The notes beneath the pieces were generated by a model. The model did not search any database, was not told where the DNA came from, and saw only the letters and a program-made list of their open reading frames with translations. From an uncultured Spirochaetota bacterium (GTDB lineage: Bacteria > Spirochaetota > Brevinematia > Brevinematales > JAOACQ01), in assembly GCA_963783575.1 (NCBI GenBank), contig CAWAOD010000009.1, positions 160,001 to 224,000 on the forward strand: a stretch of DNA of 64,000 nt, read 5' to 3'. Within the stretch, counting starts at the first letter, position 1. Every line of letters begins with the position of its first letter. Position numbers and translations under genes: made by a program. Shown here in pieces: positions 22,980-41,182 of the stretch.

Positions 22980-23570
22980 TTGCAGTTTATTAAAGATGAA
23001 ATTAAGCAGAGAATTATCGATGCAGCTAAGGAAGAATTTCTGAAAAAGGGTTTTGAGAAGGCTTCCATCAGAACTATTTGTTTTAAGGCCAAAACATCTA
23101 AAAGCAATTTGTACAATTATTTCAAAAGCAAAGACCGGCTATTTTGTTCTATCCTGGAACCTGCTTTGACAGTGATTCAAAAAGGGTTTGAACAGGCTGA
23201 AGTCGAAGCATCCGGAGACGCTCTTTCATATACCGAGGAAAAGCAGTCGAGGAATATCGGCGTTGTGATGAATTTTGTTTATGAAAACCTGGCTGAAGTA
23301 AAATTATTGCTTTTTCAATCAAGGGGCTCAAGCCTGGAGAGTTTTAAGGATCAAATTATAGATAAATTTACAGACATATTATACGGATGGGTTAAAATGA
23401 ATTCGCCGGATAAGAATATAAGCAGGTTTTTTGTCCGGTGCGTTTCCTCTTTTTATATGACAGGTATTGAACAGACAATTATTAACGGCGCTTCAAAGGA
23501 ACAGGTGGAAAAGCATATTAACGAATTTGTCCGATTTGTTTACCATGGCTGTAAAGGTGTATTAAAATAA
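22980..23570 (+). CDS. TetR/AcrR family regulator
   Basis: HTH ASIRTICFKAKTSKSNLYNYFKSK. Confidence 0.93.
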   Translation: MQFIKDEIKQRIIDAAKEEFLKKGFEKASIRTICFKAKTSKSNLYNYFKSKDRLFCSILEPALTVIQKGFEQAEVEASGDALSYTEEKQSRNIGVVMNFVYENLAEVKLLLFQSRGSSLESFKDQIIDKFTDILYGWVKMNSPDKNISRFFVRCVSSFYMTGIEQTIINGASKEQVEKHINEFVRFVYHGCKGVLK

Positions 23571-23583
23571 AGGAGATGAAATA

Positions 23584-24468
23584 ATGCCTAAAAGAATCGA
23601 ATCAAAAACTTCAAGAACTGCGCAAATGACCTGTGGCGCAAGAGCAGTATCATACTCAGAATCAAGGGATTACTATAAAAGCGATGACTATATTTCATCA
23701 ATATTAATTCCTTCATTTTTAAAGCATTTGCTCAAATTTCCTCTTGCCCGGTATTTATATTTTCAAGGTAGTCCGAAAGGAAGTTATGAATATGTAGTTG
23801 CCCGGACAAAATACATTGATTATGAATTTGCAAAAGCCCTTCATGAAGATTATGAACAAATACTTATTTTTGGCGCCGGATTTGATTCCAGGGTTATACG
23901 TTTTCAAGATATTTCAAAAAAAAACAGGATTTTTGAAATCGATGCCCCAATCACCCAATCCTCCAAGCTGCAAAGGTATAAAGAGCTGGGAATTATAAAT
24001 CCGGATAATCTGACTTATATTCCGGTTAATTTTGACAAAGAGAATATCATTGACAGGCTTAATGAAAAAGGTTTTGCAAAAAATAAAAAAAGCCTTTTTA
24101 TCCTGGAAGGGTTGACTATGTATCTGCAGCCTGAATCCGCGGTCAAAACCTTTAAAATAATTCAGGAATTCGCAGGCGCTGGAAGTATGATAGTATTTGA
24201 TTATATTTATGCGTCTGTATTGAGAAAAGAAAATTTGTATTATGGTGAAAAAGAAATATATAAGTTTGCTTCAGGAGCAGATGAAAAATGGTATTTTGGA
24301 ATAGAAAAAGGAAGGGCGGGTGATTTTCTGGCAGAATACGGTTTTGAAATATTGAACCATATGGATTCAAATGATCTGGAAAACAAATTTTTTAAGGATA
24401 AACAGGGAAACATTGCAGGCAGGGTTAATGGAACCCATTGTATCGTCACCGCAATAAAAACGGAATAA
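23584..24468 (+). CDS. SAM-dependent methyltransferase, leucine-carboxyl-MT (TIGR00027-like) family
   Basis: ARTKYID, QILIFGAGFDSR, FEIDAP and ILEGLTMYL motifs. Confidence 0.9.
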   Translation: MPKRIESKTSRTAQMTCGARAVSYSESRDYYKSDDYISSILIPSFLKHLLKFPLARYLYFQGSPKGSYEYVVARTKYIDYEFAKALHEDYEQILIFGAGFDSRVIRFQDISKKNRIFEIDAPITQSSKLQRYKELGIINPDNLTYIPVNFDKENIIDRLNEKGFAKNKKSLFILEGLTMYLQPESAVKTFKIIQEFAGAGSMIVFDYIYASVLRKENLYYGEKEIYKFASGADEKWYFGIEKGRAGDFLAEYGFEILNHMDSNDLENKFFKDKQGNIAGRVNGTHCIVTAIKTE

Positions 24469-24493
24469 AATGAATCTTAAAAAGGAGTTTAGA

Positions 24494-25222
24494 ATGGATG
24501 TGAAAGATCATTACGAAAATCATCTCTGGAAATATTATTCCTGGATTTACGGAGGATTTGAAGCAAAATCGTCATATAATTCGGATTTTTTCAGCCTCCA
24601 CAATATTAAACCCGGGCTAAACAAAATTGCTCTGGATCTCGGTGCCGGTTCGGGGTTTCAATCGACAGCGCTGGCTAAACTTGGCTTCAAAGTTATAGCT
24701 ATCGATATAAGTGCCAAAATGCTGGAAGAATTAAAAATAAATTGTATTGGGCAGGATATTGAAACTGTTCAGGCGGATTTTATTGAATTAACGGAACAAG
24801 GTAATTATAAACCGGAATTGATTATATGTATGGGTGATACCCTGACACATATCGAAAGTATGGGATCGGTTGAAAAGCTTATAGTCAATTCTTTCAGTAT
24901 TCTTCCCGGAAGTGGTAAATTTATCGTTAATTTCAGGGATTTGACCGCCGAATTAAAGGATACGGAAAGGTTTATCCCCGTTCAAAGTAACATTAACAGG
25001 ATTTTTACTTGCTTTCTTGAGTATTTTCCGGAATATGTAAATGTTTATGACATCGTACAAGAAAAATCAGGGGATAAATGGGAACAAAAAATAAGCTTTT
25101 ATAAAAAAATAAGGATTTCTTCTGATAAAATCAGGGAACTTTTCATTAAAGCCGGGTTTGAAATCGAGTTTTTCGAAATTAATAATGGAATGATAACTGT
25201 AATAGGCAAGAAGCCTGAATAA
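24494..25222 (+). CDS. Class I SAM-dependent methyltransferase
   Basis: ALDLGAGSG, AIDISAKML and ICMGDTLTH motifs; AAGGAG RBS. Confidence 0.9.
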   Translation: MDVKDHYENHLWKYYSWIYGGFEAKSSYNSDFFSLHNIKPGLNKIALDLGAGSGFQSTALAKLGFKVIAIDISAKMLEELKINCIGQDIETVQADFIELTEQGNYKPELIICMGDTLTHIESMGSVEKLIVNSFSILPGSGKFIVNFRDLTAELKDTERFIPVQSNINRIFTCFLEYFPEYVNVYDIVQEKSGDKWEQKISFYKKIRISSDKIRELFIKAGFEIEFFEINNGMITVIGKKPE

Positions 25223-25241
25223 AAGTACCGGAGGTATTAGT

Positions 25242-26054
25242 ATGCAGGATAAAATTTTACTGGAACTTGGAAATGTCCAGAAAACCCTTCTTCTTCCATT
25301 ATGGGGGAGAGCCGTTGAAACACGGAAGGATAAACCGCTTTTGATTGACAAAACCGCTGTTGAGATCATTGATAAAATCGATTATGATTTTTCATTAATG
25401 ACGGTAAATATTAACGAAGTAAGCCGGATGGGCTGGATAATGCGGAGTCTTCACATTGATAAAACAATCAAAGCATTTCTGGAAAAACATCCTAAAGCAA
25501 TTATTGTCAATATCGGTTGCGGCTTTGATACAACATTCAATAGAGTTGACAACGGTTTGTTGAAGTGGTTCGACCTTGATATGCCGGATGTAATTGAAGT
25601 TCGAAAACATCTCATTCCGGAAAGCGGCATACAGAAATATATTTCATCTTCTTTTCTTGATGAAGAATGGCTTAAAACATTGAAACCGGACGACAATATT
25701 TTATTCATTGCGGCAGGTGTATTTTACTATTTTGAGGAAAATCAGGTTAAGGGATTTTTCAGAAAAATCGCAGACCTTTTCCCTGAAAGCGAGGTTGTCT
25801 TTGACACATCGTCAACGCTTGGGATCAAAATGGCTAATAAAATGGTCATTAAAAAAAGCGGTCTTGATGAAAAGTCATTCCTGAAATGGGGGCTTAAAAA
25901 TGCGTCAGTCCTGGAAATGTGGGATAAAAGGATAAAAATTCTTGAAGAATATGACCTGTTTAAAGATGTACGAAATATTTTTAAAAATAAGATCGTAGCT
26001 TTTATCTCGGATGCTTTGAAGATGCAGTATATGGTGCATATTAAATTCCGGTAA
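25242..26054 (+). CDS. O-methyltransferase, TcmP/LCM-like
   Basis: QKTLLLPLWGRA, VNIGCGFDT, WFDLDMPDVI and AAGVFYYF motifs. Confidence 0.9.
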   Translation: MQDKILLELGNVQKTLLLPLWGRAVETRKDKPLLIDKTAVEIIDKIDYDFSLMTVNINEVSRMGWIMRSLHIDKTIKAFLEKHPKAIIVNIGCGFDTTFNRVDNGLLKWFDLDMPDVIEVRKHLIPESGIQKYISSSFLDEEWLKTLKPDDNILFIAAGVFYYFEENQVKGFFRKIADLFPESEVVFDTSSTLGIKMANKMVIKKSGLDEKSFLKWGLKNASVLEMWDKRIKILEEYDLFKDVRNIFKNKIVAFISDALKMQYMVHIKFR

Positions 26055-26119
26055 TAATTTTGCTAAAACCGGCGTTTTTCTGTTAAAATAATGATCACTA
26101 TAAAATACGGAGTTTAAGA

Positions 26120-28375
26120 ATGCATCAATCAGCCGGTGAAGTTCTGCGTAATGTATTCGGGTACGAAACATTTCTTCCACACCAGGAAGAAATCATATGC
26201 GCCGTTCTTTCAAAAGATGATGTACTTGCCGTTCTTCCTACAGGAGGCGGAAAGTCAGTCTGCTACCAGATACCGGCGATCATTCTCCCTGGTTTGACCA
26301 TTGTTATATCGCCGCTTATCTCGCTCATGAAAGACCAGGTCGATCAGCTGATCAAGGCCGGAATAAATGCCGTCGTGCTTAACAGCTCACTTGAACGAAA
26401 CGAATATTTTAAAAACAAAGCTCTGCTTATCCAAGGAAAAGCCCGCATCCTTTATATTGCCCCGGAATCGCTATTCAAACCGGATATTCAATCAATGCTT
26501 TCCGGCATCAAACCATCTTTGATCGCTGTTGACGAAGCTCACTGCGTCTCTGTCTGGGGACATGACTTCCGCCCTGAATACCGGCAGTTGATCAAACTTC
26601 GATCAATTTTCCCTGAAGCTGTCTGGATAGCCCTGACGGCAACCGCAACCGGTCATGTACGCGATGATATCAAAAAATGCCTGGGCCTGAAATCGGCAAA
26701 AGTATTCATTGGAAGTTTTAACCGGAAAAATTTGTTCCTTGAGGTAATAAAAAAAACAAATGGTTTTAATCAAATAATTCAGGTTCTAAACCGGCACAAA
26801 GATGAGTCCGGAATAGTCTACTGCTTTTCAAGAAAACAGGTTGATATATTATCTGAGAAGCTTTCTAAAGAAGGCTATTCCGTAAAACCATATCATGCCG
26901 GATTGACCGATGAAGAACGCCATAACAACCAACGGCTTTTTGTAAACGATAATGTATCGATCATTGTTGCGACAATCGCATTCGGAATGGGGATCAATAA
27001 GCCGAACGTACGCTTTGTCATCCATTATGACCTCCCGAAAAACCTTGAGTCATATTACCAGGAGATCGGCAGGGCCGGGAGGGACGGCCTTGCTTCCGAC
27101 TGCATACTCCTTTATAATTACGGCGATATGCGAAAGCAGATGATCTTTATAGAAGAAATACAAAATCCGGAATTAAAGTCCTCGGCAATTAAACACCTGA
27201 ACGACATGGTTTCTTACGCCGAAAACATGGACTGCCGGAGAAAACCGCTTTTAAATTACTTCGGGGAGGTATTCCACCCTGAAAATTGCGGCGGATGCGA
27301 TAACTGCGTTGAAAAAGAAACTACCGGTTCCGAAACGGATTTGACGAAAGAAGGCAGGTACTTCCTGTCAGCAATGACAGAAGTCAATGAAAAATTCGGG
27401 AGCGAACACATAATCGAAATCCTCCGGGGCTCCTCTAGTGAAAAAATTCTGAAATTCAGCCATAACGAACTTGCATCATACGGCCTGGGCAAGGATAAAA
27501 CAAAGAAAGAATGGCGGCAAATCAGGGATGCTATGGAACAGCACAGGCTTGTCAAAAAAGACCTTGAGCAATTCGGCGTGCTTAAAATTCTGCCGGCAGG
27601 CCGGGAAGTTCTGTGCGGCACGCGAAAATTCATGGCTTTTATTGAGAAGGAAGATGTGAAGATATTCCAGCAAAACACTCATAAATCTGACTTAAATTAT
27701 GATAAAAACCTATTTGAAATTTTAAGGAAACTCAGAAAACAACTTGCAGACAATGAAAATGTACCGCCTTACATAATATTTCCCGATACTTCTCTCATAC
27801 AGATGTCAAAGGTTTTCCCGAAGAATAAAGAGGAATTCTCGCATATAACCGGCGTCGGCCGGGTGAAACTTGAAAAATATTCCGGGGATTTTATTCCTGT
27901 GATCAGGCAATATGCCAATGAAAACAAAATTTCTTCAATTTCAATTCCGGAGAATAACCGAAAAGATTATTCCATTAACGCTCAGCTAAATGGAATAAAA
28001 ACCGGGATATATAAGCAAACAGCCTCTAAAATATTGGAGGTAAAAAAACCTCCGGCACATATTAATACAGGGACATTATTTAATTCCGGCCGGTCCTTTG
28101 ACAGTATCGCCGGCGATCTTAAAATTCAAAAAGCCACAATTATTGACCATCTTCTCCGATGTCTAAAAAGCGGTTTTCAAATCAATACTTCTTATCTTTC
28201 GGGCAATATGCCACGAAGCGAGGATGAATCAAGGCAAATTCTTGAAAAATTTAGAAAAGACGGCGGCGGCTACTTGAAGCCAGTTTTTGAGGCTTTCAAT
28301 GGAAAATACGGTTATGATGAGCTGAAGATTTATCAATTGGTATTTTTCAGTGAAAAAATATCAAAGAGTAAATAA
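26120..28375 (+). CDS. recQ: DNA helicase RecQ
   Basis: PTGGGKS, VDEAHC, WGHDFRPEY and QEIGRAGRDG motifs; Zn/RQC and HRDC domains. Confidence 0.97.
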   Translation: MHQSAGEVLRNVFGYETFLPHQEEIICAVLSKDDVLAVLPTGGGKSVCYQIPAIILPGLTIVISPLISLMKDQVDQLIKAGINAVVLNSSLERNEYFKNKALLIQGKARILYIAPESLFKPDIQSMLSGIKPSLIAVDEAHCVSVWGHDFRPEYRQLIKLRSIFPEAVWIALTATATGHVRDDIKKCLGLKSAKVFIGSFNRKNLFLEVIKKTNGFNQIIQVLNRHKDESGIVYCFSRKQVDILSEKLSKEGYSVKPYHAGLTDEERHNNQRLFVNDNVSIIVATIAFGMGINKPNVRFVIHYDLPKNLESYYQEIGRAGRDGLASDCILLYNYGDMRKQMIFIEEIQNPELKSSAIKHLNDMVSYAENMDCRRKPLLNYFGEVFHPENCGGCDNCVEKETTGSETDLTKEGRYFLSAMTEVNEKFGSEHIIEILRGSSSEKILKFSHNELASYGLGKDKTKKEWRQIRDAMEQHRLVKKDLEQFGVLKILPAGREVLCGTRKFMAFIEKEDVKIFQQNTHKSDLNYDKNLFEILRKLRKQLADNENVPPYIIFPDTSLIQMSKVFPKNKEEFSHITGVGRVKLEKYSGDFIPVIRQYANENKISSISIPENNRKDYSINAQLNGIKTGIYKQTASKILEVKKPPAHINTGTLFNSGRSFDSIAGDLKIQKATIIDHLLRCLKSGFQINTSYLSGNMPRSEDESRQILEKFRKDGGGYLKPVFEAFNGKYGYDELKIYQLVFFSEKISKSK

Positions 28376-28461
28376 AATTTAACCATAAATGCCACTTGAC
28401 TGCCATTAAAACAAATATTATATTTAATTATCTTGAATATTTAATAAATGACGGAGGATTT

Positions 28462-29088
28462 ATGGATAATTCTAACCCATGGCTGGAAATTCCAGCTGAA
28501 ATATATGAGCATCATATGTCGGATAAAAATATATTACAAATACAAAAGCTTAACGATATTATAAAATCACAAATTGAAGATTATAAACCGAAGTATCTTG
28601 CTATCTTCGGAGTAACTACCGGAAATGGACTTGAATATACGGTAAATGTAAAAAATGTTTATGCCATTGATATTAATGACAAATATTTGAATATTTGCAA
28701 GGAAAGGTTTAATCATAATAAAAATATAAGTTTTCTCAAATTGGATGTTCAAAAAGATAATTATAATTTCGGTAAAATTGACCTTGCAATTTGTAATCTG
28801 ATCTTTGAATATGTTAATGAAGATACTATGGCTAAAAAGATTGCCGGGATTTTGCTTGAAAACGGTGTTTTGTCATTGGTGTATCAAGTCAATCAAGGCG
28901 TGGCTTATATCAGTAAATCAAAGTATTCAGATGTCTTTACCATATTGGACAAAATACATCATAATGTTAACGAAGAATTTATAACAAATATAATGAAAAA
29001 TAATGGATTAATTAAAATTAAAAAGGAAGAGTTTATTTTACCGGATAATAAAAAACTTATTAGAATTGATTTTAAAAAAACCGCTTAA
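28462..29088 (+). CDS. Class I SAM-dependent methyltransferase
   Basis: NPWLEIP..YEHHM, FGVTTGNGLE and AIDINDKYL motifs; GGAGG RBS. Confidence 0.8.
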   Translation: MDNSNPWLEIPAEIYEHHMSDKNILQIQKLNDIIKSQIEDYKPKYLAIFGVTTGNGLEYTVNVKNVYAIDINDKYLNICKERFNHNKNISFLKLDVQKDNYNFGKIDLAICNLIFEYVNEDTMAKKIAGILLENGVLSLVYQVNQGVAYISKSKYSDVFTILDKIHHNVNEEFITNIMKNNGLIKIKKEEFILPDNKKLIRIDFKKTA

Positions 29089-29094
29089 ATTTTC

Positions 29095-31725
29095 CTATTT
29101 TCCATCTTTTGGGAATAAAATGGAAAAAATGGTATGTCCAGGCCTGCTTTCTACATTTATAGTCCCTTTAAATTCGTTAACAAATCTTTTAACCAGGCTT
29201 AAACCAAGTCCGGTTCCTTCCCCGAAAGGCTTTGTAGTAAATAGCGAATCAAAAATCTTATCCATATTTTCCGGTGGAATTCCTATTCCGTTATCTATAA
29301 CCGTAAACCTTAATTGTCCGTCATTCGTCCGTGATAAAGTTAATGAAATTTGACCCCCATTCGGATTACAGGCATCTATGGAATTCTTAATCAAATTAGA
29401 GGCAATCTGGCTGAACCATCTTGGATCACCGTATAAAACCGATGTCTCATCAAGTTCCATTACCAGGTTGCATTTTACCTTCTTAAAAGCAAATTCCAAT
29501 AAATTGACAACATCCTTTAAAATCGGAGCAACTTTAAAATATTGTATCGGTGATTCGATTTTATCAGGCGTTTGAGCCTTTATACCCCTGATAAAACCTG
29601 CACTTTTTTCTGCGCTACGCATGGCTGTTTCTATATTTTTTTTCATTTCTCCGGCAATTGCATGATGATCTGCCGGAAGAACCTCGGGTGTGTCTATTGA
29701 CTGATTATATTCATCAGTAAGAGATTTTATCTGTATTAATGCAGCACGGATAGCCGCTATAGGTGTGCTCATTTCATGGGCAATCTCGGCAGACAAACGA
29801 CCCAAAGAAGCCATTATTTCAGATAAAAGCAGTTTTTCCTGATTTTCTTTTAAATCCTGATAAGTTGCTTCAAGCTTTGATTTTGACTGGGCTAATTGAA
29901 CTGCATCCGATTCTAAATTATTTACAAGAAGCGCCCCCTTCAATGCGCTTGAAAGCTGAACCCTTAATAAATCAAATACCTTTCCGTTCTGAGGGTTTGA
30001 TTCAAACAATACAAAACCTAGCTGGTCTTCCCTGAAATATAAAGGCTCGACTATCATACTGAAACGCTTATCAAGATTTAATAGACCTTCGGGTAAAAGC
30101 ATCTTAGAAGAAAATCTCAAACCTTCCGGTGCAATTTTTATTCTTCCGTTCTCATCATAGGCCAGCAAAATACGCGACCATTCCGTAGGTTTAAGAGGAG
30201 CTTCATAAAGTGCCAGGTAACATTTTGAAATACCAAATAAGGGGAATTCTCCAGCCATTATATCGGTTAAGTCTTTCAAATTGAAAGAAGTAATTAACTT
30301 TTGGGCTATTTCACTCAATTTCTGGTTTTGTGCTTCAATAACAATTCTTTTATACCCCTCAGCCTGTAAAGATACCTTACTAATCATTAAGCGGATCTGC
30401 TGAAAGAGGTTTTCAGCAGACAGTATGTATTTACCTGGCAGTAAAGGAAGGATATGCTTTCTGAGAGTTGTTATGACCTCCTGCCAAGAGATAATATCAA
30501 TATCATTCATAACCATCTTTGAGAGGATTTCATTCATTACTGAAAGGAATCTTACCGATCCCGGGTTTTCCAACCCGTCAATAAAACTTTCCTGAAGCTG
30601 TTCAATATTTTTTTCATCAACGGATACCCCGGTAATTATACCTGAAATATCATTTATAAATAGATCTTTATCTATTCCGGCTTCAATTCTCATATTATCA
30701 TCCTCCTGAGAATTGAGACTGACTGGAATTTTTAAAACCTCGGTATCAATACAACCGCAAGACTGCCTTATAATCAGCTCGGACTCTTTATTAACAATTT
30801 CAGGCACTTCTTTTCCTTCAAAAATATCCAGCAGAATATTTGCGGCAATGATGCCCTGATTGTAAAATTGCTGGGTAATAGTAGTAAGAGGAGGTGTTGA
30901 CAACACACACTCCGCAAGATCATCAAAACCTGTAACGGCAATATCGCCTGGAACCCGGATTCCCCTGTTTTTTAAAGCCTCAATAACATCAAAAGCAGTA
31001 ACATCATTAGCAGCGGCAATTGCATCCGGTTTCTGTTTTCTAACATCAAGTAAAAGATTAACTGCATTTTCACCCGAAGGTCTGTTAAAATCACCGGGGG
31101 CTACAAGATCCGGATCGAATGAAATCCCGTTTTTAATTAATACTTCCACATACGCTCGGTATCTTTCCTGCGCTTCAAGATGCGTGGAAGGCCCCTGAAC
31201 AAACGCGATCTTCCTATAGCCATGAACCTTAATCAAGTGTTCGATAATATACTTCATACCATTATAATTATCAAAAACAATTGAAGGCACACCTTCAATT
31301 TTTAATGATATACTTACAATTGGCAGTTGTTTGTAACGTATATGAAAATATCTCATTTCTTCAACCGTACTGTAAAAAATGAGCAGAGAACTCCAAAGAA
31401 CAAGGCCGTCAATGCATTCCTTGTTCGCAAGATCAAAAAGAACATTAGCTTGATAATCATAACCGAGATGTGAATTGATGGGATTTGCCGGAAAACATAT
31501 CAAATTGGCATTCCTTTTCCTGACTGCGTCATTAACGCCGGCCCATAATAAAAGGCTGCAGGGATCTTTCGTGCCATAATTTAATAGGCCGATTGTTGGC
31601 CTTTCCCTTGCTTTACCCGTTATTCCAAATCTGTTAATATCCATCGGAAATACCCCGTGTTTTCCGGTTAAGGATAGTTCCGGTTTATTAAAGCTCTGTT
31701 TTAAATGATATTTCGAACTGTCCAA
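29095..31725 (-). CDS. Sensor histidine kinase with LacI-type sugar-binding domain and GAF-like region (alternative start 31644)
   Basis: DNYNG..IIEHLI..HGYRKIAFVQG, AANDVTAF, VPGDIAVTGFDD (LacI/PBP, no HTH); AHEMSTP H-box, DNGIGI and GTGLGL. Confidence 0.9.
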   Translation of the reverse strand: MDSSKYHLKQSFNKPELSLTGKHGVFPMDINRFGITGKARERPTIGLLNYGTKDPCSLLLWAGVNDAVRKRNANLICFPANPINSHLGYDYQANVLFDLANKECIDGLVLWSSLLIFYSTVEEMRYFHIRYKQLPIVSISLKIEGVPSIVFDNYNGMKYIIEHLIKVHGYRKIAFVQGPSTHLEAQERYRAYVEVLIKNGISFDPDLVAPGDFNRPSGENAVNLLLDVRKQKPDAIAAANDVTAFDVIEALKNRGIRVPGDIAVTGFDDLAECVLSTPPLTTITQQFYNQGIIAANILLDIFEGKEVPEIVNKESELIIRQSCGCIDTEVLKIPVSLNSQEDDNMRIEAGIDKDLFINDISGIITGVSVDEKNIEQLQESFIDGLENPGSVRFLSVMNEILSKMVMNDIDIISWQEVITTLRKHILPLLPGKYILSAENLFQQIRLMISKVSLQAEGYKRIVIEAQNQKLSEIAQKLITSFNLKDLTDIMAGEFPLFGISKCYLALYEAPLKPTEWSRILLAYDENGRIKIAPEGLRFSSKMLLPEGLLNLDKRFSMIVEPLYFREDQLGFVLFESNPQNGKVFDLLRVQLSSALKGALLVNNLESDAVQLAQSKSKLEATYQDLKENQEKLLLSEIMASLGRLSAEIAHEMSTPIAAIRAALIQIKSLTDEYNQSIDTPEVLPADHHAIAGEMKKNIETAMRSAEKSAGFIRGIKAQTPDKIESPIQYFKVAPILKDVVNLLEFAFKKVKCNLVMELDETSVLYGDPRWFSQIASNLIKNSIDACNPNGGQISLTLSRTNDGQLRFTVIDNGIGIPPENMDKIFDSLFTTKPFGEGTGLGLSLVKRFVNEFKGTINVESRPGHTIFSILFPKDGK

Positions 31726-31728
31726 AAA

Positions 31729-32103
31729 TCATTTTTTTAGTGCTTTTTCCAGAACCTCAAAAAGTCTCTCTTTTCTGACAGGTTTGATAATCAGGTCAAT
31801 GGCGCCAAGTTCCTTCGCCCTGTCATAATACTCCTTCTCTATAAATCCGGTCAGCATAATAACGGGTATACTGGGATATTCCGTATGAATTTCCCGCAAA
31901 ATATCGAAACCGTTTTCTTCCTTCATTTTGATATCGCAGACAACAATATTTATTGAACCGGCGATCAGAAAAGCCAGGGCCTCCGGTTTGTTCGATGCTT
32001 CCGCAACCCTGAATCCGAATGATTTTATCTGGTTACGGATCACGCTTCTGATACCGGGATCATCGTCCACTATCAAAATTGTTTTTAAAGAGCTTTCATG
32101 CAT
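31729..32103 (-). CDS. Single-domain response regulator
   Basis: ILIVDDD, CDIKM, MLTG and IKPV receiver motifs. Confidence 0.93.
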   Translation of the reverse strand: MHESSLKTILIVDDDPGIRSVIRNQIKSFGFRVAEASNKPEALAFLIAGSINIVVCDIKMKEENGFDILREIHTEYPSIPVIMLTGFIEKEYYDRAKELGAIDLIIKPVRKERLFEVLEKALKK

Positions 32104-32106
32104 TTT

Positions 32107-34503
32107 TTATTCCTTATATTTTATCAGGTATTTTACATCAAAAACAGTTCCGGAGCCTTTGCTGCTCCGGACCGAAATAATACCATCATATTTTGTGACC
32201 AGTCGGTAAACAATACTTAATCCCATGCCGGTTCCCAGTCCAGGATCCTTTGTGGTAAAAAATGGATCAAATATTTTCGAGATGTCCTCGGATGGTATCC
32301 CGCTGCCCGTATCGCTTACTGATGTATGAATTACATTCCCGTTATAAGAAGAATCGATTGTCAGAACCCCCTTACCTTTCATCGCATCAACAGCGTTGTT
32401 AAAAAGATTAATATATATCTGGCGTATTTCTCCGCCCAGAGCATAAAACGGAGGCAGTTCGGAAAAATTCTTCTCAACTTTTATATTTATGAAATTTTTA
32501 CTGTATTTTACAATCCTTAAAGCCTCTTCCATTATTTCGTTTAAATTAACACGGGAAGGTTTTTCATCTCTCATACTCCTGGAATATGAAGATAGGTCTT
32601 TAACAATATCTGAGGCATGAATCGTAAAATTAATAATCGTTTCGGCATAATCCCTGATCTCCTTTGAATCCGCCTCATCCCTTATGATTTCAGCGTTTCC
32701 CAGAATACCATAGAGCGGATTATTTATTTCGTGAGCGACCCCGGAAACCAGCGTACCCAGGGCAGCCATCTTCTCCGCACGGATAAGCTGTTCTTTCATT
32801 TCTTTCTGAGATGTAATATTTTTCATAATAATTCCGGCTTCTTTTTTTCTACCGGACAATTCCGGAAGAAGAAAAAGAGTGTATCCCATAATCTCTTTAC
32901 CTGTTATAAGCTCCTGATCATCCAGAAAATTATTTTTAGGAAGCAGTTTTATCTGCTCTATGAATTTTTCCCTGAATTCAGTACTATCAATCCCTATAAC
33001 ATTAAGAACTTCACTGCCGATCAAATCCCCGCGGTTCTGAAGAATTTCGTTTTTAAACGATTCATTGTAAAAAGAAATCTTATATGTTTCCAGATCAAAA
33101 ACCGCAATTGATGAAGGTATGTTTGATATAATATTCTTTGCGGCATTGGAAGCGTATATTTTATTAAGAGCAACTTTCAACTGGTTTGATATTGTTATAA
33201 AAAACTGATTGTAATCAGGATTTATTTTTTTGCGCGAATAAGGATTATCGAATATTATAAAATATAGATATTTATTCCTTACTGTCAAATGAAGGACAAG
33301 GCTTTCATAAGTCCCGGGTTCGGGATTGAGCAGATTGTAATTACCAATTGATAAATTCATTTCACTTGCCAGGCCTGACAGCATCTTTTCCCATTGCCGG
33401 GGAGTAAAATAAGGAAAATCAACCGCCCTTTTTGATAAATCCCTGTAAAGAATCAACGGTTCCTCGATCAGTTCATATTGTTCATTAAAAATAAAACAAT
33501 ATCCTCTGTCAAATCCGACCCTTTCTATGATTAAATTAATAACTGCTACAATTGTATCTTTTTCGTTTTCAAGAGTGTTAATCTGCTCCGCAATATCCTT
33601 TAATATGGATAATTTCTCCGCTTCTTCACGAATCTGCAGATGGGCGGTCCGAAGGTTACCGTATTCATTTTTAATGCTTTCCAGTGATTCTTCCAGGGCC
33701 TTTGATCTTTCCACATTCAATTTTTTGTTAACCTCAATGATTTTCTGGTATTTCCTGATCCATACAAAAGAGTATATTCCAAAGAAGCCCAGCGCTGTAA
33801 TCACAAGAGATTTTAAATCAATCCAGGGTAAAGATTGGAAAAAGTATAAAATTAAAATCCCTATAAAAAGAACAACAAGTCCTCCTAATATATATAGTTC
33901 TTTCCTTTGAACCGGTTTCCATTTTAATCTATAAATGCAGGAATCGTCTCCCTCAGCCTGACATTTAAGTTCTTCAATTTCAGCGGGCGGGAGCCCCCAG
34001 AAACCCGGAATGTAGGCAAGCTGACCCTGCATTGCCTGACAGTTCAGCTTGGTCTGCTGGTAGCCGCTGGAGTATTTACAACGCATAGTAATTGTATTGA
34101 AACCAGATTCCACCACCTCCATCTTCCCGACGCCGGAAAAATTCGAGGACATTTCTGCTATTTTCCTGTAAGCAATTTTCGGTGAACCGAACAGTTTCAG
34201 GACACTGAGTATTGAATAAAAAAAACCGTAGGATTCTTTGGATAAAACATAATACCCTGCCTCAAAAGGCGCTCTCGGGTTCTTAGTGAAATCCACCAGT
34301 CTCTGCAATAACTGGTTATAATATTCAAAAGATACCCAATTATTCTCATTTTCGAGAAATTCCAAATCCAGGCCTGTCTCACCGATAAAAAGCTCCAGAG
34401 TCCTCATGTCATAGCGGTCCTGAAGATAAAAGAGGATAGGTTTCACAACCCTACATGAGAGGTCGGTTTTAATTTTTTCGCTATCATAAACCCTTTGGCT
34501 CAT
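32107..34503 (-). CDS. Sensor histidine kinase: V4R/H-NOX-like N-terminal domain, 2 TM, GAF, PAS-like, HisKA, HATPase
   Basis: N-terminal ...ENNWVS...AG...CQAMQG...[39 protein letters not shown] and GTGMGL. Confidence 0.88.
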
Positions 34504-35949
34504 GGAATCTTCCTTTCTTTATTTTCATAGCTTAGCACCAACCGTCTAACTTTTTCGTTAATTGCCGGGTCATTCAGTATAAAAACAAATCCCATCTCTT
34601 TTTCATGAGCGCCGTCAAATGACCAAACCACCCTGGCAGGTACTTTAAAATCATTCAGGGGATTGGAGAAGGAAAATCTCAGCAAGCACCGCCCTTTCTT
34701 CAAGACCTTGGGAAAGGATATCCTGGCTCCGGTCAAAGAAATGTCTGCCAGATTGCCGCTAAAGAATTCTTTTTTATGTTCCAACACAACGCTGGCATCG
34801 GTATAGACTCTTTCACAGAAACGCCGATTGAAAACCTGCTTGGTATGAAATTTAGTCGATTCGGAGAAAAGAACAAAAAGATTTGTCAATATCGGATTCA
34901 GAAAGGGTGAGAGGTGCTTCATATAAGCGTACATCGGCACAACTTCGGATCCAAAACTTAGTTTTTCATATGTGGTAGTAAGACCCATTTCAATAATCCC
35001 GGCCCCTTCATCAATACCCAGTTTAACGGTATAACCGTAAAGATTAAAAAGCAAATAATACTGCCTTACATATTCATAATCCATACCGGCAAAAAGCCCG
35101 TGAAGGGTACTTTCATCCTTAATCGCCAGTGAGTAACCGATCACCTTGCCATCCTTCAAGAATTCCAGGAGCTTCGTCTTTCCCTTCATATAATGACTCA
35201 TATTGACAAAATACTCCCGGGTAAGGATTTCTCTCTGATATTCCCTGGAATGATCATAACATTGCCGCCAAGAGCTCCAGAAGCCTGTCCGCCTGATCCC
35301 CATATTCGGACACAACTTTTACTTCGACCGAGTTTTCCTCTAAAATGCGCATATATCTTCTGACTGACATTTTGTATTTACTGGCAAGGTCCCCCATATA
35401 TTCCCCAAAATCTTTCCAATTGTTGATCACATAAGCATTGGGCAGTATACCAACCCTTTTAAAAGCGAACTTAAGAAGGCTATCGGAATGGGGAAGATCT
35501 TTTTCGATGAAATCCCTCAAAATAAGTATATTGACTTTTTTTTCACGGGCGTATACTTTCATCTGATCCGTAATAATTTCCATAATCCGTGAGATGTCAT
35601 GCCCATCGACCCAATTTACGGTATTTCCCAGCGCGGTAGGAGTCCCGCATTCAATAACGCGCAGCCGGAGGAAACGCGGATAGATAATTTTCCTGATAAA
35701 ATCGATGATTTTCTTTGCGATTCCCCTATTGAAAATATCCAGATCGAAACTGATATAATAGAAACAGGTATTTGCTATAGGCTTGCCGTCTTCATACAAC
35801 ACAACATAACGGTAATCGCAGTCGTTAATATGAGATTCTTCAACAGCGATCAGGTGTTCCCAGGAACTGATGATATTATCCTTTCTGACAACGGAATTCC
35901 AGAGTGATGGTTCGACTTCTTTCAGGGAGTTATAAACTTTAGTTTCCAT
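34500..35949 (-). CDS. FemAB/BioF2-like GNAT acyltransferase fused to a C-terminal PilZ domain (one-base frameshift near 35270)
   Basis: Removing one T in GAG CTC T TGG CGG joins the ORFs (...LLELWRQCYDH...); GNAT motifs CGTP, LRDF, GMDY...FNLY, EMGLTTTYEK; PilZ RFCER and DISLTG. Confidence 0.8.
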
Positions 35950-36089
35950 AACTACCTCACAATAGAATATTCTCCAAAAATAATTATCCGGATAATATGG
36001 ATAGTATAGGTCTTCCTGATAATTCTGTCAATAAGGTTTTTAAATTAATAATGAATCGTATTAATTACTGAAAAAAGATTATTCTTTAT

Positions 36090-36176
36090 GAATATGGGTA
36101 GTTCTAAAATCTTCTTTAAACTACATTTTTTATCCAATGGAACTACCCATGGAGTTTTTAGAAGTACTCATATTAT
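36090..36176. promoter_or_regulatory. Triple repeated motif in the divergent promoter region
   Basis: ATGGGTAGTTC (36094-36104), inverted GAACTACCCAT (36140-36150) and GAAGTACTCAT (36161-36171). Confidence 0.6.
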
Positions 36177-36385
36177 ATTTGTTTATTCCTCTTACCTTTT
36201 TTTATTATAATGAGTAAGATATCATCTGTCAACCAATAAATAGTTTTCTTTACATAAATTATTCCTTTAATTAAAATGATATATTAATTGTATAAAATTT
36301 GTGATTAATATTTTATTAATAATTTGTTATCTTGTTATTTAATAAACGGTTGATTATATTATAAATTGATTTTTAGGAAATTAGC

Positions 36386-36754
36386 ATGGAAGAAAAGAGA
36401 TTTTTTAGTAGAAGAGATCCAAGGATTAGCCTGACAATTGAAATATCCATATTGCAGGAAGGCCTTACCGATAGTAAAAAAACCATACTTGTCAATACCA
36501 TTGATATTTCAAAAGAAGGTTTCTTTCTTGAAACTACAGAAAAACTGCCGGAAAACATTACACTTGTACTTACATTTTCCCTGCCGGATCAGCATGATAA
36601 GATTAAAGTACATGGAACTGTTGTCTGGCAGAAAAAGGAAGAAACCAGCGACAGTTATCAAGCCGGCATCCATATTCTTGATATGGATGATAAATCCGCT
36701 GATTTAATGAAACATTTCTTCGAATCGGCCAGTTATTACGGCTGGTTTTATTAA
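36386..36754 (+). CDS. Stand-alone PilZ domain protein
   Basis: RRDPR (RxxxR) and DISKEG (DxSxxG); GTVVW...AGIHI. Confidence 0.9.
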   Translation: MEEKRFFSRRDPRISLTIEISILQEGLTDSKKTILVNTIDISKEGFFLETTEKLPENITLVLTFSLPDQHDKIKVHGTVVWQKKEETSDSYQAGIHILDMDDKSADLMKHFFESASYYGWFY

Positions 36755-36764
36755 GGAAGTATTT

Positions 36765-38024
36765 ATGGATTCAGACAAATATTCATTGGTAGATTTTATT
36801 GAATACAACGACAGCGATATATTCACAAAAGCACGTTTTTTCGGGGAATATAAGGTAGATTATATTGCCAAACGATATTACACATATTTCCGTCAAACCC
36901 TTGGTTACTGCGGACCCCGTGTTAAAGTATTCGACCGCTATGAGAACAAAGTCAAAGAGATGATTATGATGGCTTCGAACAATTACCTATGTTTATCCTA
37001 TCATCCGGACGTTATCGAAGCCGGAGTTCAGGCCCTTAAAAAATATGGTGCGGGCCTTTGCGGTTCTCCGGTTCTCTGCGGTTATACCGATCTTCACAGG
37101 GAACTTGAGCTCAAGCTTGCTGAATTTAAAAGTTGTGAGGATGCAATCCTTTTTCCATCAGGATTTTCAACAAACCAGGGGACAATCTCTGCGCTTGTAA
37201 GAAAAAATGATACTGTTGTTGTCGACAGACTTGATCATGCCAGTATAATCGACGGTTGTATGGCTTCAGGCGCAACTTTCAAGCCCTTCGCCCATAACAG
37301 CATTACGAGCCTGCACAATGTTCTATCAAGGCTTGACAAAGCCGGGATAAAATCAGGAAAACTTATCATCATTGAAGGTGTTTATAGCATGGACGGTGAT
37401 ATCGCCCCCCTTACGGGAATTGTTGATGCGGCAAAGGAATTCGGGGCAAGGGTTATGGTTGATGAAGCCCACGCTACCGGTGTTCTCGGGAAAACAGGCA
37501 GGGGAAGCCTGGAACACCACGGATTGGAAGGCAAGGTTGATATAGTTATGGGTACATTCAGCAAATCTCTCGGCGCTTCGGGAGGATTTATCTGTTCATC
37601 TAGTGAGGTTATCGATTATCTTAGATTTTACGCACGTTCTTATTTCTTTTCGGCATCGCTGCCGCCGGTCATAGCCGGCTGCGTACTCAAGGCTCTTGAA
37701 TTGATTGAGAAAGACGGTAAAATTCGCGATAAACTCTGGGATAATATCCATTATATGAAAAGCCAATTGAAATCGCTGGGTTTCAATGTTCTGGAAAGCA
37801 ATTCCGCCATAATCCCAATAATTGTAGGCGATGACATAAAACTACGGAAAATGTCTTCCGAAATTCATGATAAAGGTATCTTTATAAATTCGGTATTTTA
37901 TCCGGCGGTTCAGAGGAAATCTTCAAGAATCCGCTTAAGCTTGATTTCAGACCACACAAGGCAGGACCTTGACGAAACCCTGAATGTCCTTGAGGATACA
38001 GGTAAAAAATTCGGCATAATTTAA
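36765..38024 (+). CDS. PLP-dependent alpha-oxoamine synthase (SPT/BioF/Kbl/CqsA family)
   Basis: SNNYL, DHASIIDG, EGVYSMDGD, DEAHATG, GTFSKS (PLP Lys) and FSASLPP; N-terminal extension with DIFTK. Confidence 0.92.
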   Translation: MDSDKYSLVDFIEYNDSDIFTKARFFGEYKVDYIAKRYYTYFRQTLGYCGPRVKVFDRYENKVKEMIMMASNNYLCLSYHPDVIEAGVQALKKYGAGLCGSPVLCGYTDLHRELELKLAEFKSCEDAILFPSGFSTNQGTISALVRKNDTVVVDRLDHASIIDGCMASGATFKPFAHNSITSLHNVLSRLDKAGIKSGKLIIIEGVYSMDGDIAPLTGIVDAAKEFGARVMVDEAHATGVLGKTGRGSLEHHGLEGKVDIVMGTFSKSLGASGGFICSSSEVIDYLRFYARSYFFSASLPPVIAGCVLKALELIEKDGKIRDKLWDNIHYMKSQLKSLGFNVLESNSAIIPIIVGDDIKLRKMSSEIHDKGIFINSVFYPAVQRKSSRIRLSLISDHTRQDLDETLNVLEDTGKKFGII

Positions 38025-38043
38025 TAAAAAGGCAGAAAGGGGC

Positions 38044-38736
38044 CTAATCAGTTTCTTTCAATAAATTCTTGATTGTTTCTAAAAGCAGTTCCTTCCTGAT
38101 TGGTTTCTGAAGATAGGCAGCCCTGGATTTGATAAGACCGTAACTTTTCATTTCGGAGTCCATATCGATAGCTGTTATAAAAAGAATCGGTACAGTTTCA
38201 TCCAGCCTCCTTATCAATTCGGCAAGCTCAATCCCATTAAAATCAGGAAGTCTGATATCTGTAATTACAAGATCGGGAACTATGTTCTGAAAGAGAATAA
38301 GGCCTTCGGCTCCGCTTTTTGCAGTATAAACGCTGTAGTTCTCCTTTTGAAGCATATAAGAAATGGTTTTAGTTATATATGTAAGGTCATCTATGAGCAG
38401 TATGTTAATAAACATATTATTTTTCACTATACCTTTCAGCCTTTCGGCTATTTCTATCTGCATGGAATTTGCATTAATATTTAGAAGAGGATCAAGGCTG
38501 CTCTTTAAAAGATTTTGAAAACGGGCTTTAATCTTTTGCTCCCTGGATTCTCGATCTATCTGTTCTATCATTGCTTTCTTTTTATCGACTGGAATATTCA
38601 TTTCAAGAATTTCCTTTACCCTGGCTGTTTCTTCCTCAGAACGTGAACGTTTTAATATATTACCGAGTTCGATATAATTTTCACCATCAATTTTTTTGTC
38701 CATATCTAACTCCTGTAATATTATTTTATAACACAT
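38044..38736 (-). CDS. Response regulator receiver with N-terminal helical extension
   Basis: LLIDD, ITDIRLP, FITA and LQKP in the C-terminal half; no DNA-binding domain. Confidence 0.85.
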   Translation of the reverse strand: MCYKIILQELDMDKKIDGENYIELGNILKRSRSEEETARVKEILEMNIPVDKKKAMIEQIDRESREQKIKARFQNLLKSSLDPLLNINANSMQIEIAERLKGIVKNNMFINILLIDDLTYITKTISYMLQKENYSVYTAKSGAEGLILFQNIVPDLVITDIRLPDFNGIELAELIRRLDETVPILFITAIDMDSEMKSYGLIKSRAAYLQKPIRKELLLETIKNLLKETD

Positions 38737-38831: not shown

Positions 38832-40061
38832 TTAAAAAAGATGGACGGGCGATTCGTCTATTTGTGTGGGAAGACCCATACCATTTAATAATGATATAAA
38901 AGGATCGGGATCAAGTTCCTCGACATTTGCCATTGTTTTTACATCCCAGGCGCCCTGAGCGGCAAGAATCGCTCCTGCTACAGGCGGAACGCCGGCAGTA
39001 TATGAAATCGCTTGAGATCCGACCTCTTTATAACAATCTGCATGATCGCAAACATTGTAGATAAATATCATCTTGTCTTTCCCGTCTTTTTCCCCTTTGA
39101 CAAGATTCCCGATGCAGGTTTTGCCGGTATAATTGGGGGCCAGGGATGACGGATCCGGGAGGATGGCTTTAAGAAGCTTAAGCGGTACGACTTCAAGTCC
39201 TTCTGCCGTTTTGACCGGTTTTTCCGAAGTAAGGCCCAGCTTTGTGAGAACCGTGAAAACATTGATGTAATGATCGCTGAAACCCATCCAGAAACGGATA
39301 CTGTTCGCATCAATATTATTCGAAAGGGAATGAAGCTCGTCATGACCATTGAGGTAGACCGGCATCTCACCTACAACCGGAAATTTATATACTTTTTTAA
39401 TTGAATGGACCTTTTCTTCGACCCATTTCCTGTCTATCCATGTCCATACTTTCTTAAATTCCCTGAAATTGATCTCAGGATCGAAGTTTGTTGCAAAGTA
39501 TTTTCCATGATTTCCGGCATTTACATCCAGAATATCAATTGTGTCGATCTTATCGAAATAATGCTTTACAGCCAGCGCGCAGTAGCTGTTAACCACCCCG
39601 GGATCGAATCCCACCCCAAGAATGGCCGTTATACCTTTTTCTTTACACCTGTCTTTTCTCTTCCATTCATAATTCGCATACCACGGCGGGTCTTCACAGA
39701 CCTTGTCGGGTTCCTCATGAATAGCTGTGTCCATATAGACAGCGCCGGTTTCTATGCAGGCCTCAAGAACCGACATATTGATGTAGGATTGACCGAGATT
39801 GATGACGATCTGTGAGCCGGTTTCTTTAATCAATCTTGCAGTTGCCTGAATATCCAGGGCATCAATCTTCCTTGAATAAAGTTTCTTTGATTTATCTTTC
39901 AGACTGTTTTTTCTGTTAACACTTTCTATGATCGCTTCGCATTTATTCTGCGACCTTGAGGCAATGCAGATATCGCCTAATATATCATTATTACTGGCAG
40001 CCTTATGCGCAGCCACATGAGCAACCCCGCCGGCTCCTATAATCATAACATTTTTCCTCAT
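38832..40061 (-). CDS. Carboxy(nor)spermidine dehydrogenase (saccharopine dehydrogenase family)
   Basis: IIGAGGV, GVGFDPG, FATNFDPEIN and QAISYTAGVP motifs; adjacent to nspC. Confidence 0.93.
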   Translation of the reverse strand: MRKNVMIIGAGGVAHVAAHKAASNNDILGDICIASRSQNKCEAIIESVNRKNSLKDKSKKLYSRKIDALDIQATARLIKETGSQIVINLGQSYINMSVLEACIETGAVYMDTAIHEEPDKVCEDPPWYANYEWKRKDRCKEKGITAILGVGFDPGVVNSYCALAVKHYFDKIDTIDILDVNAGNHGKYFATNFDPEINFREFKKVWTWIDRKWVEEKVHSIKKVYKFPVVGEMPVYLNGHDELHSLSNNIDANSIRFWMGFSDHYINVFTVLTKLGLTSEKPVKTAEGLEVVPLKLLKAILPDPSSLAPNYTGKTCIGNLVKGEKDGKDKMIFIYNVCDHADCYKEVGSQAISYTAGVPPVAGAILAAQGAWDVKTMANVEELDPDPFISLLNGMGLPTQIDESPVHLF

Positions 40062-40075
40062 AGCCGTAGACCTCC

Positions 40076-41182
40076 CTAAGATAAATTATTCAAATAATCT
40101 TCATATTTAAAAATACGTACGGTATCGATACTGCCGTCCAGCCTTTTTACAACGATCGAGGGCATTTGAAGCCCGTTAAACCAGTTCTTTTTAACCATTG
40201 TATAGCCTGCAGCATCAGCTATATGAATGATACTGCCTGCTTTTAATTTATTTTTAAAATCATGAGTCCCGAATATGTCACCTGCGAGGCAGGAACATCC
40301 CGCGATCATATATTTATTACCTCCCCGGGGCATTTCAATTTTAGCGCCTGTACCGTAGATCAACAAATCAAGCATATGTGCTTCCGTCGAAGCGTCAACA
40401 ACCGCTATATTTATTTCATTATGAACAATATCCAGAACTTTTGTAACAAGTTCGGCGGATTTAGTAATGACAGTTTCTCCGGGTTCAAGATATACCTGAA
40501 CATTGTATTTTTCACCGAACTCTTTCAGCTTTGAACAAAAACTTTTCAAAGGATAACCGTCCTTTGTAAAATAAAGCCCGCCGCCAAGACTGATCCAATC
40601 CACTTTATTTAAAATTCCCGAATATTTCCTTCCTATTAAATCCAGGTTTGCTGAAAAATTATCAAAGTCATCATTTTCACAATTAAAATGTATCATAATA
40701 CCGCTCAAAATCGGCAACACTTCCGATAAATCTCCTGTTTTGGTAACTCCAAGCCTTGAGTAACGGCGAGCCGGGTCGGCAAGATCGAAATGAGAGTAAC
40801 TAAAACCAGGATTTACCCGAAGACCTATTTTTAATCCCCTGACGTCTTTATAATAATTTTTTAATTGTGATAATGAATTAAATATAATCTTGTCGGCATA
40901 TTTTTTAATCTCAAGGATATCATCCCTTGAATAAGCTACGCTGTAGCCATGGACTTCCTTCCCGAACTTTTCCCTTCCAAGCCTTGCTTCAAATAAAGAA
41001 CTGCTGGTTGTACCGTCTAAATATTCCTTCATCAATCCGAAAACAGACCAAGTGGAAAAACACTTCAGTGCCAGAACCGACTTTGCCCCGGAATGATCTC
41101 TGACATATTTTATCTTTTTAAGATTTTTTAATAACTTCTTTTCATCAATTAAATAGTAAGGGGTTTTTAAAACCATCGCCAT
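40076..41182 (-). CDS. nspC: Carboxy(nor)spermidine decarboxylase
   Basis: LALKCF, LRVNP, SRLG, YLEPGE, SCLAGD and YTMVKKNWFNG motifs. Confidence 0.95.
   Translation of the reverse strand: MAMVLKTPYYLIDEKKLLKNLKKIKYVRDHSGAKSVLALKCFSTWSVFGLMKEYLDGTTSSSLFEARLGREKFGKEVHGYSVAYSRDDILEIKKYADKIIFNSLSQLKNYYKDVRGLKIGLRVNPGFSYSHFDLADPARRYSRLGVTKTGDLSEVLPILSGIMIHFNCENDDFDNFSANLDLIGRKYSGILNKVDWISLGGGLYFTKDGYPLKSFCSKLKEFGEKYNVQVYLEPGETVITKSAELVTKVLDIVHNEINIAVVDASTEAHMLDLLIYGTGAKIEMPRGGNKYMIAGCSCLAGDIFGTHDFKNKLKAGSIIHIADAAGYTMVKKNWFNGLQMPSIVVKRLDGSIDTVRIFKYEDYLNNLS

Follow-up and report, generated by a model that had tools for sequence, protein, structure and literature searches.

A conserved oxoamine synthase, GNAT and H-NOX-fold kinase cassette of an uncultured Spirochaetota bacterium as a candidate lipid signal-and-receptor pair

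The quorum-sensing systems CqsA/CqsS of Vibrio and LqsA/LqsS of Legionella pair an alpha-hydroxyketone synthase with a kinase, and in the bacterial ceramide route (Spt, bCerS and CerR) the formation of an amino-ketone is followed by amide formation through a GNAT-fold enzyme. Here we analyzed a 64,000-nucleotide stretch of contig CAWAOD010000009.1 from an uncultured Spirochaetota bacterium (assembly GCA_963783575.1; the whole stretch is referred to as the window), in which an alpha-oxoamine synthase is encoded together with a GNAT protein carrying a PilZ domain (GNAT-PilZ), a standalone PilZ protein, a sensor histidine kinase and receivers. This cassette is real and conserved, and it most likely works like CqsA/CqsS without being a member of that group, because its synthase belongs to a different lineage, a putative amide-forming enzyme is added and the predicted receptor fold differs.

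As in CqsA/CqsS and LqsA/LqsS, an oxoamine synthase lies beside a membrane histidine kinase and receivers. However, the window synthase is far from CqsA: in the PDB, where matches reached down to E 1.6e-85, it scored 291 bits with serine palmitoyltransferase (SPT) as the best match and 134 bits with CqsA structures, and it reached 230 against a cut-off of 428 with the CqsA/LqsA model NF005526. CqsS and LqsS are multi-pass membrane receptors, whereas the window combines a probably cytoplasmic H-NOX-fold input with the additional enzyme. The ceramide route differs in that the window synthase is not an SPT, the GNAT is unlike the presumed bCerS type and no reductase is adjacent.

Three further described systems share single elements with the cassette. 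According to PMC12910592, mycobacterial BioF2 (Rv0032) is an SPT-like synthase with a GNAT-type domain that does not complement bioF. The BioF2 locus resembles three relatives of our locus (G006, G008 and L088) in its fusion order and in its fatty acyl-AMP ligase (FAAL) and acyl carrier protein (ACP). Rv0032 has acpA and fadD34 as neighbors. The window differs in that GNAT and synthase are encoded separately, the synthase falls outside the SPT clade and PilZ proteins and a sensor kinase are present. The H-NOX/HnoK systems of Shewanella and Vibrio, as described in PMC7108781, share with the window sensor the fold, a zinc site of three cysteines and a histidine or glutamate, the hinge glycine and the coupling to a histidine kinase in c-di-GMP (cyclic diguanylate)-rich organisms; the window domain differs in having no histidine, in being fused to its kinase via a membrane hairpin and in its tie to a lipid synthase. 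Finally, Nas343 and Nas354 are GNAT-superfamily N-acyl amino acid synthases with a C-terminal PilZ domain for which c-di-GMP control was proposed (PMC4897644), but their domain is of the FeeM type and they lack an oxoamine synthase partner, whereas the window enzyme is a tandem GNAT of predicted FemX fold.

Conservation and layouts of the cassette

Each part of the cassette was used as query against the same 401 genomes of the phylum. A six-gene core, consisting of a single-domain receiver, the sensor kinase, GNAT-PilZ, the standalone PilZ protein, the synthase and a second receiver, was found in the same arrangement in G013 and G017, two genomes of the same taxonomic order whose synthases are 68–70% identical to that of the window. 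The sensor domain matched 26 genomes (15 at E<1e-20) and the GNAT orthologue 54 (16 at E<1e-30). All 15 sensor genomes were among the 16 GNAT genomes, the additional one being G084 (540 contigs, 85% complete). Since score gaps were chosen as thresholds after viewing, a locus with a linked sensor supplied the GNAT query and kin genomes are not independent, these counts describe a pattern and are no statistical test. In the 14 other genomes, the GNAT was located on the same fetched stretch as the kinase in 12 cases and the synthase in 10. The recurrence of the six-gene core in G013 and G017 and the phylum-wide co-occurrence of sensor and GNAT show that chance does not explain the arrangement, and the neighborhood is conserved beyond the window, as the proposal of the first-pass annotation of this DNA requires.

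Four layouts were observed. Besides the window type (a), the order synthase, GNAT, kinase (b) occurs in G264, G203, G378, G139, G294, L089 and the Omnitrophota contig L032, often with added FadL, CrtI-like or B12 radical S-adenosylmethionine (SAM) genes and doubled kinases. Layout (c), found in G006, G008 and L088, comprises a FAAL, a GNAT-synthase fusion, an ACP, the kinase and both receivers. Layout (d) has a PilZ-synthase fusion with FAAL, ACP, radical SAM and GNAT or GNAT-PilZ genes (G160, G135, G102, G166 and G111); in G135 and G111, PilZ-synthase, GNAT and FAAL lie together on a different contig from the kinase. Near the cassettes, FAAL and ACP were seen in G006, G008, L088 and G160, FadL in G294, G139 and L089, B12 radical SAM genes in G294, G135, G102, G166 and G160, and CrtI-like genes in G203 and G378; tandem sensor duplicates occur in G264, G203, G378 and G294. 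The single-domain receiver follows the kinase in G013, G017, G006, G008, G135, G102, G166, G160, L088 and L091, and the second receiver, which accompanies this kinase type, has orthologues in G013, G017, G006, G008, L088 and L091. Neither receiver has a recognized DNA-binding domain.

In P0126 the GNAT is fused straight to sensor and kinase, and P0174 carries a divergent GNAT-like region and a PilZ domain ahead of the sensor. The link to lipid chemistry and the ties of the enzymes to each other and to the kinase, both proposed from the window, therefore find counterparts in the FAAL, ACP and FadL genes and in the GNAT-synthase, PilZ-synthase and GNAT-kinase fusions of related loci. We read these lipid genes as support for a lipid product. 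A related locus (L026:7488-10271) encodes a three-domain fusion of PilZ, synthase and GNAT, followed by two kinases of another sensor type.

The GNAT was seen in three of six metagenome loci, and in the other three the sensor gene lies ~2 kb or less from the contig end. Six loci retrieved through weak sensor matches (L082–L087) held neither the synthase nor this GNAT. In the plasmid collection the sensor domain had no match and GNAT relatives were at most 26% identical; no oxoamine synthase lay within 7 kb of the GNAT relative in Nostoc, the one plasmid locus opened. Three unnamed ESM Atlas clusters with scores <0.9 are leads only, and a search for longer GNAT fusions returned one protein and was insensitive, as it missed fusions found later in the genomes.

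Enzymes, sensor kinase and PilZ domains

The window synthase has the catalytic lysine K267, the pyridoxal 5'-phosphate (PLP)-stacking histidine H158, the D233/H236 motif and the carboxylate-binding R390 of alpha-oxoamine synthases; together with N72 and T264, these residues are invariant in all 59 aligned homologues. It passed none of the subfamily models, scoring 382, 341 and 304 against SPT models (cut-offs 640, 500 and 670), 380 against BioF (cut-off 426) and 393 and 342 against Kbl (cut-offs 460 and 493). The reference sequences for phylogenetic trees were taken from plasmid records and labeled by passing model cut-offs, with CqsA and LqsA not among the rows; 14 of 65 rows were dropped from a first tree as near-duplicates or partial sequences, and a more careful tree contained 27 chosen rows. 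Approximately unbiased (AU) tests on the latter rejected a union of the synthase with the Bacteroidota-type SPT group (p = 0.0005) and with BioF (p = 0.0003), which together with the failed cut-offs places it outside both. A union with E. coli Kbl was not rejected (p = 0.127), although the two were not sisters in the free trees, whose backbone is poorly resolved. Of the separation from BioF and Kbl on which the first-pass annotation relied, the BioF part thus stands, whereas a grouping with Kbl is compatible with the AU test.

The closest synthase homologues with a named source are labeled Spirochaetales, in line with a probable spirochete. The synthase is the single family member found in the window's genome (4.9 Mb, 18 contigs, 90% complete), where bioD had no match and bioB none over the cut-off (bioA was not searched). 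Zinc-type tdh had no match over the cut-off in five of five genomes (SDR-type Tdh was not searched). In G013 and G017, a separate family member lies beside bioD. Aligned with PDB structures, the synthase retains Asn52, His138, Ser81 and Lys244 of S. multivorum SPT as well as the Tyr27/Phe28 pair (Y41/F42), of which Tyr27 is part of the acyl-site wall according to PMC10196870. The SPT loop G80–N85 is changed from GSRFLN to GSPVLC, and the proline is present in 52 of 59 homologues. Because Y41/F42 are kept and this loop is altered, the acyl donor of the synthase may be long-chain and its amino acid substrate possibly not serine; in the oxoamine synthase family, first-shell residues do not fix specificity (PMC13692747).

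Other synthases of the family were encountered in different settings. At L019:4601-10373, among the same-order relatives, an oxoamine synthase gene lies behind an HMG-CoA-synthase-like gene, two enoyl-CoA hydratase genes and an SDR gene, with a FabA-like gene next. This beta-branching cassette might make a branched long-chain base, and L020–L024 resemble it by the sizes of their open reading frames (ORFs). A Thioclava plasmid cluster (L097:2750-13232) holds an ACP, a related oxoamine synthase, an AMP-binding protein and a ketosynthase.

In the window, the GNAT-PilZ gene is split over two frames (35254–35949 and 34500–35315), with the frame change between positions 35284 and 35270 compared to the intact G017 orthologue; it is a single ORF in both G013 and G017. 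Since tblastn also found frame changes in 5 of 72 other tested loci of the same assembly, including an 86%-identical gene, the frameshift is likely an assembly error. Elsewhere in the window, an ABC transporter gene in a MarR/ABC/ABC/HlyD unit is split over two frames (50293–51228 and 49302–50408, minus strand), and this split (49302–51228) is a probable further indel error.

Sequence searches of the PDB gave no match for the GNAT. The G017 orthologue was modeled with a pLDDT (predicted local distance difference test) of 90.4, and the model has the tandem GNAT FemX fold of the FemABX group. In a Foldseek search with this model, FemX was the best match by E-value (7e-12) and the aminoacyl-tRNA-dependent synthases Sbb17 and Sba18 were best by TM-score for the target (0.72–0.73), followed by FemA and MprF; identity to all fold matches was at most 13%. 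Judging from this model, the GNAT would most likely use an aminoacyl-tRNA as donor, with N-acylation as the alternative. An analogy to ceramide-type GNATs had been drawn earlier and has to be abandoned: the window GNAT aligned to the synthase-fused GNAT of L026, presumably a bCerS-like ceramide synthase, with an hhalign probability of 6% and has a predicted FemX-like fold instead. Two matches to the L026-type GNAT exist elsewhere in the window's genome.

The sensor kinase consists of an H-NOX/V4R-fold input domain (33904–34503), a hydrophobic hairpin at residues ~200–255, a middle region labeled GAF-like and PAS-like from its relatives, a HisKA domain with H591 and an HATPase domain. The first-pass annotation had called it V4R-like. 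The Pfam match to V4R is weak (E 0.034, below the cut-off), but the fold model of residues 1–200 (pLDDT 95.7) is of the H-NOX/V4R type and has a putative zinc site. It aligned with H-NOX structure 4u99 at Z 15.0 (root-mean-square deviation 2.7 over 174 residues; Foldseek E 4.5e-8), followed by VirS (Z 13.4), Bet3 (9.2) and PoxR (8.4), and the input domain is thus predicted to adopt an H-NOX fold. The zinc-site pattern Cys ... (His/Gln/Glu)-x2-Cys-x7-Cys is present as C155, E178, C181 and C189. Each of the three cysteines occurs in 100 of 101 sensor homologues, and position 178 is Glu in 70 and His in 25 of them. The ligands and a glycine five residues after the first cysteine match the H-NOX proteins of S. 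oneidensis and V. cholerae, for which PMC7108781 gives the site C139/H161/C164/C172 and a hinge glycine. The H-NOX-type site resembles the zinc site of DmpR, whose V4R domain binds small molecules (PMC7264223).

Residues 1–200 of the sensor contain no histidine, and no column of the helix that would carry the proximal heme ligand has a histidine in more than 6 of the 101 rows. The YxSxR motif of H-NOX proteins is likewise not conserved in the homologues. Because the domain is without histidine and the proximal histidine is absolutely conserved in the H-NOX set of PMC7108781, standard heme binding by this sensor is unlikely. The hydrophobic stretch comes after the domain, which is therefore probably cytoplasmic and membrane-tethered. 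The sensor family comprises 781 clusters at E<=1e-10. Most of 40 long members scanned were histidine kinases, some had GGDEF, HD or SpoIIE modules, and single members had cyclase, Ser/Thr kinase or ABC transporter outputs. In P0146, an ABC transporter is fused to two H-NOX-like sensor domains, and at L082:8532-10637 a FeeM-type N-acyl amino acid synthase domain precedes a distant V4R/H-NOX-like domain in one fusion protein.

Both PilZ domains of the window contain the RxxxR and D/NxSxxG motifs, as described before. The gating by c-di-GMP deduced from them holds in part. GNAT-PilZ keeps both motifs in six of six genomes, but the standalone PilZ orthologues of G013 and G017 lack D/NxSxxG and only 8 of 15 genomes showed a PilZ domain in their cassettes, by which c-di-GMP gating was rejected as a defining trait. 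In the window, whose genome has 32 GGDEF and 14 PilZ matches, such gating is plausible as an optional add-on. The standalone PilZ protein is likely a regulatory partner of the synthase, because 19 of the top 120 homologues of the synthase include PilZ as a fused domain.

Proposed mechanism and competing explanations

We give an even chance to the proposal that an N-aminoacyl fatty amino-ketone is both made and sensed through the cassette, which would then represent an undescribed lipid signal-and-receptor pair. In favor of it are the co-occurrence of sensor and GNAT, the fusions and lipid-related neighbor genes in relatives, SPT as best PDB match of the synthase with Y41/F42 kept, the modeled GNAT and sensor folds, the FeeM fusion of L082 among distant sensor relatives, and the motifs of GNAT-PilZ together with the GGDEF matches of the genome. 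In the sequence of steps that we infer, the synthase would first join the acyl group of acyl-ACP or acyl-CoA to a small amino acid, perhaps one other than serine, in a decarboxylative condensation yielding a 2-amino-3-ketone; the relatives provide a dedicated FAAL and ACP for this purpose, and the window genome would draw on the general acyl pool. The FemX-fold GNAT would then cap the amine via an amide, with an aminoacyl-tRNA as the most likely donor. The product would enter the membrane and bind the empty H-NOX pocket at its cytoplasmic face, altering the autophosphorylation of H591 and the subsequent transfer to the two receivers. In this lineage, c-di-GMP would likely tune synthesis through the PilZ domain of the GNAT and perhaps through the standalone PilZ protein.

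Several observations weigh against this proposal. The GNAT gene is frameshifted in this assembly, and tandem GNATs that use acyl-CoA (VipF, Orf14 and NMT) also scored well in Foldseek. The same zinc site serves as a redox sensor in a heme-free Vibrio H-NOX (PMC7108781). The synthase lineage also exists outside the cassette: some synthase was found at E<=1e-85 in 103 of the 401 genomes, and 1 of 13 synthase-seeded loci held both GNAT and sensor. Conversely, G264 has a sensor kinase without a synthase nearby (L075). Divergence of the sensor is not matched by that of the synthase: in L088, a sensor 62% identical to that of the window stands beside a GNAT of 24% and a synthase of 34% identity. The kinase core and both receivers of L088 are close to those of the window (HisKA 81–87% identical), while the synthase part of its fusion falls into the SPT clade (98/98) and the AU test rejected its union with the window synthase (p = 0.0075). 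Because one half is close and the other divergent, the biosynthetic half is, judged by these identities, exchanged under a stable signaling half. Strict co-evolution of sensor and synthase was rejected on this ground. Such a swap is not expected of a strict lock-and-key pair, except where both cassettes yield similar products. Either the two products converge or the sensor detects a general cue, for example an acyl tail or the redox state.

The explanation that competes best, although we regard it as rather unlikely, is that the enzymes build a structural ceramide-like or amino-lipid for the membrane and that the kinase is a co-inherited regulator which reads the state of the cell instead of the product, most plausibly the thiol redox state at the zinc site of three cysteines and a glutamate or histidine. 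The match of the zinc ligands and glycine to the H-NOX proteins of S. oneidensis and V. cholerae, the exchange of the synthase module under a conserved kinase and receivers, the grouping of GNAT-fused synthases with SPT and the proximity of tailoring enzymes typical of membrane lipids are all consistent with such a role. The zinc site, however, is shared with the small-molecule-binding V4R domain of DmpR (PMC7264223) and may be structural, the FadL genes point to the transport of a diffusible lipid, the patchy spread (15 of 401 genomes) and the tandem sensor duplicates suit signaling, and the window cassette has no reductase.

It is less probable still that the GNAT is a receptor subunit which either acts on the amino-ketone, by binding or modification, or acylates the sensor, and which signals to the kinase by direct contact; the signal itself would then come from the synthase alone, as with CqsA. 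In favor of this idea, the GNAT is the most constant neighbor of the kinase (12 of 14), the protein architectures of P0126 and P0174 join the two, and Bet3, which has the same fold as the sensor, carries covalent palmitate (structure match 6aq3), with C17 of the sensor being present in 69 of 101 homologues. Yet G006, G008 and L088 encode the GNAT as a fusion with the synthase, and the pairing of a 62%-identical sensor with a highly divergent GNAT in L088 is hard to fit to a tight interface. We regard as very improbable a housekeeping role of the synthase as Kbl or BioF, with the GNAT gene being a pseudogene in decay and the signaling genes neighbors by chance: the enzyme is the sole one of its family found in the genome, close homologues are labeled 'glycine C-acetyltransferase' in their sources, the Kbl union was not rejected and the GNAT is frameshifted, but the synthase falls below all Kbl and BioF cut-offs, bioD, bioB and tdh were not recovered at the thresholds given above, G013 and G017 hold their separate family member beside bioD, the BioF union was rejected, the neighborhood is conserved and frameshifts recur in this assembly.

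Gene environment and implications

The cassette forms two divergent units around the intergenic region at 35950–36385, with gaps of 3 bp and 3 bp and a 4-bp overlap leftward and a gap of 10 bp rightward (Table 1). ORF positions, strands and gaps agreed with the earlier description and its domain assignments were upheld by Pfam; likewise, no bio genes, ACP or reductase adjoin the cassette in the window.

Table 1 Features of the cassette and its immediate surroundings in the window
Feature	Position	Strand	Basis
LacI-type-sensor histidine kinase	29095..31725	-	ORF list, Pfam
Single-domain receiver, directly after the sensor kinase	31729..32103	-	Pfam
Sensor histidine kinase, 798 aa	32107..34503	-	Pfam, fold model, homologue alignment
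Tandem GNAT (FemAB_like, predicted FemX/Sbb17 fold) with C-terminal PilZ (RFCER ... DISLTG)	34500..35949	-	Pfam, fold search with G017 orthologue model
AT-rich divergent intergenic region	35950..36385		sigma-70 consensus scan, Rfam
Standalone PilZ protein (RRDPR ... DISKEG), 10 bp upstream of the synthase	36386..36754	+	Pfam, motifs
Orphan alpha-oxoamine synthase, 419 aa	36765..38024	+	Pfam, NCBIfam, PDB searches, trees
Second receiver with conserved, unnamed helical N-terminal part	38044..38736	-	Pfam, orthologues in relatives

Sigma-70-like sites in the intergenic region matched the consensus at 12 of 12 positions (36232–36204, minus strand), 11 of 12 (36031–36003, minus strand) and 10 of 12 (36249–36277, plus strand); the scan, which relied on consensus matching alone, found 10 sites against 4.6 expected. 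Rfam searches of the window and of four related loci detected no riboswitch. The LacI-type kinase, which the first-pass annotation had counted as part of the unit, is probably co-transcribed with the cassette here, but it is missing from the conserved cassettes of relatives and was rejected as a member of the system. It is probably a lineage-specific passenger and a local addition; its sensor has seven further matches in the window's genome, and the sensor part matched only two proteins across all fetched loci.

On the other side, a saccharopine-dehydrogenase-like gene and a PLP decarboxylase gene (38832–41182, minus strand; Pfam) adjoin the cassette and are presumably carboxynorspermidine/carboxyspermidine polyamine genes. 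They were rejected as part of the system, as in G017 they are not beside the second receiver; two similar-sized genes on the other flank in G013 encode TPR and WG-repeat proteins (Pfam) and not this pair. Further away, the window contains an IS110-family transposase gene (7923–8933, plus strand), a group II intron (Rfam RF00029 match at 11888–12040; reverse transcriptase/maturase ORF at 12075–13436, minus strand) and, at 22980–29088 (plus strand), a 751-aa ORF, labeled RecQ-like by eye, within a run of genes for TetR and for four SAM methyltransferases, of which two are LCM-type.

No paper on this combination of genes was found in the literature searched, which largely left out subscription journals and did not extend to supplements, and the earlier statement that it is undescribed was thus upheld within that literature. 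A broader generalization is possible but tentative: the cassette may stand for a bacterial signal of a new class, in which an oxoamine synthase and a tRNA-dependent FemX-fold enzyme, varied through swappable synthase and tailoring modules, would build an N-aminoacyl long-chain amino-ketone that is read by H-NOX domains with lipid in place of heme. If true, it would add one more chemical class to the few bacterial signals made by PLP-dependent acyltransferases. It would also suggest a product candidate for the BioF2-type GNAT-synthase fusions, to which a 2026 review assigns no function (PMC12910592), and would indicate what kind of ligand is bound by the heme-less sensors of H-NOX fold, a large family without annotation.

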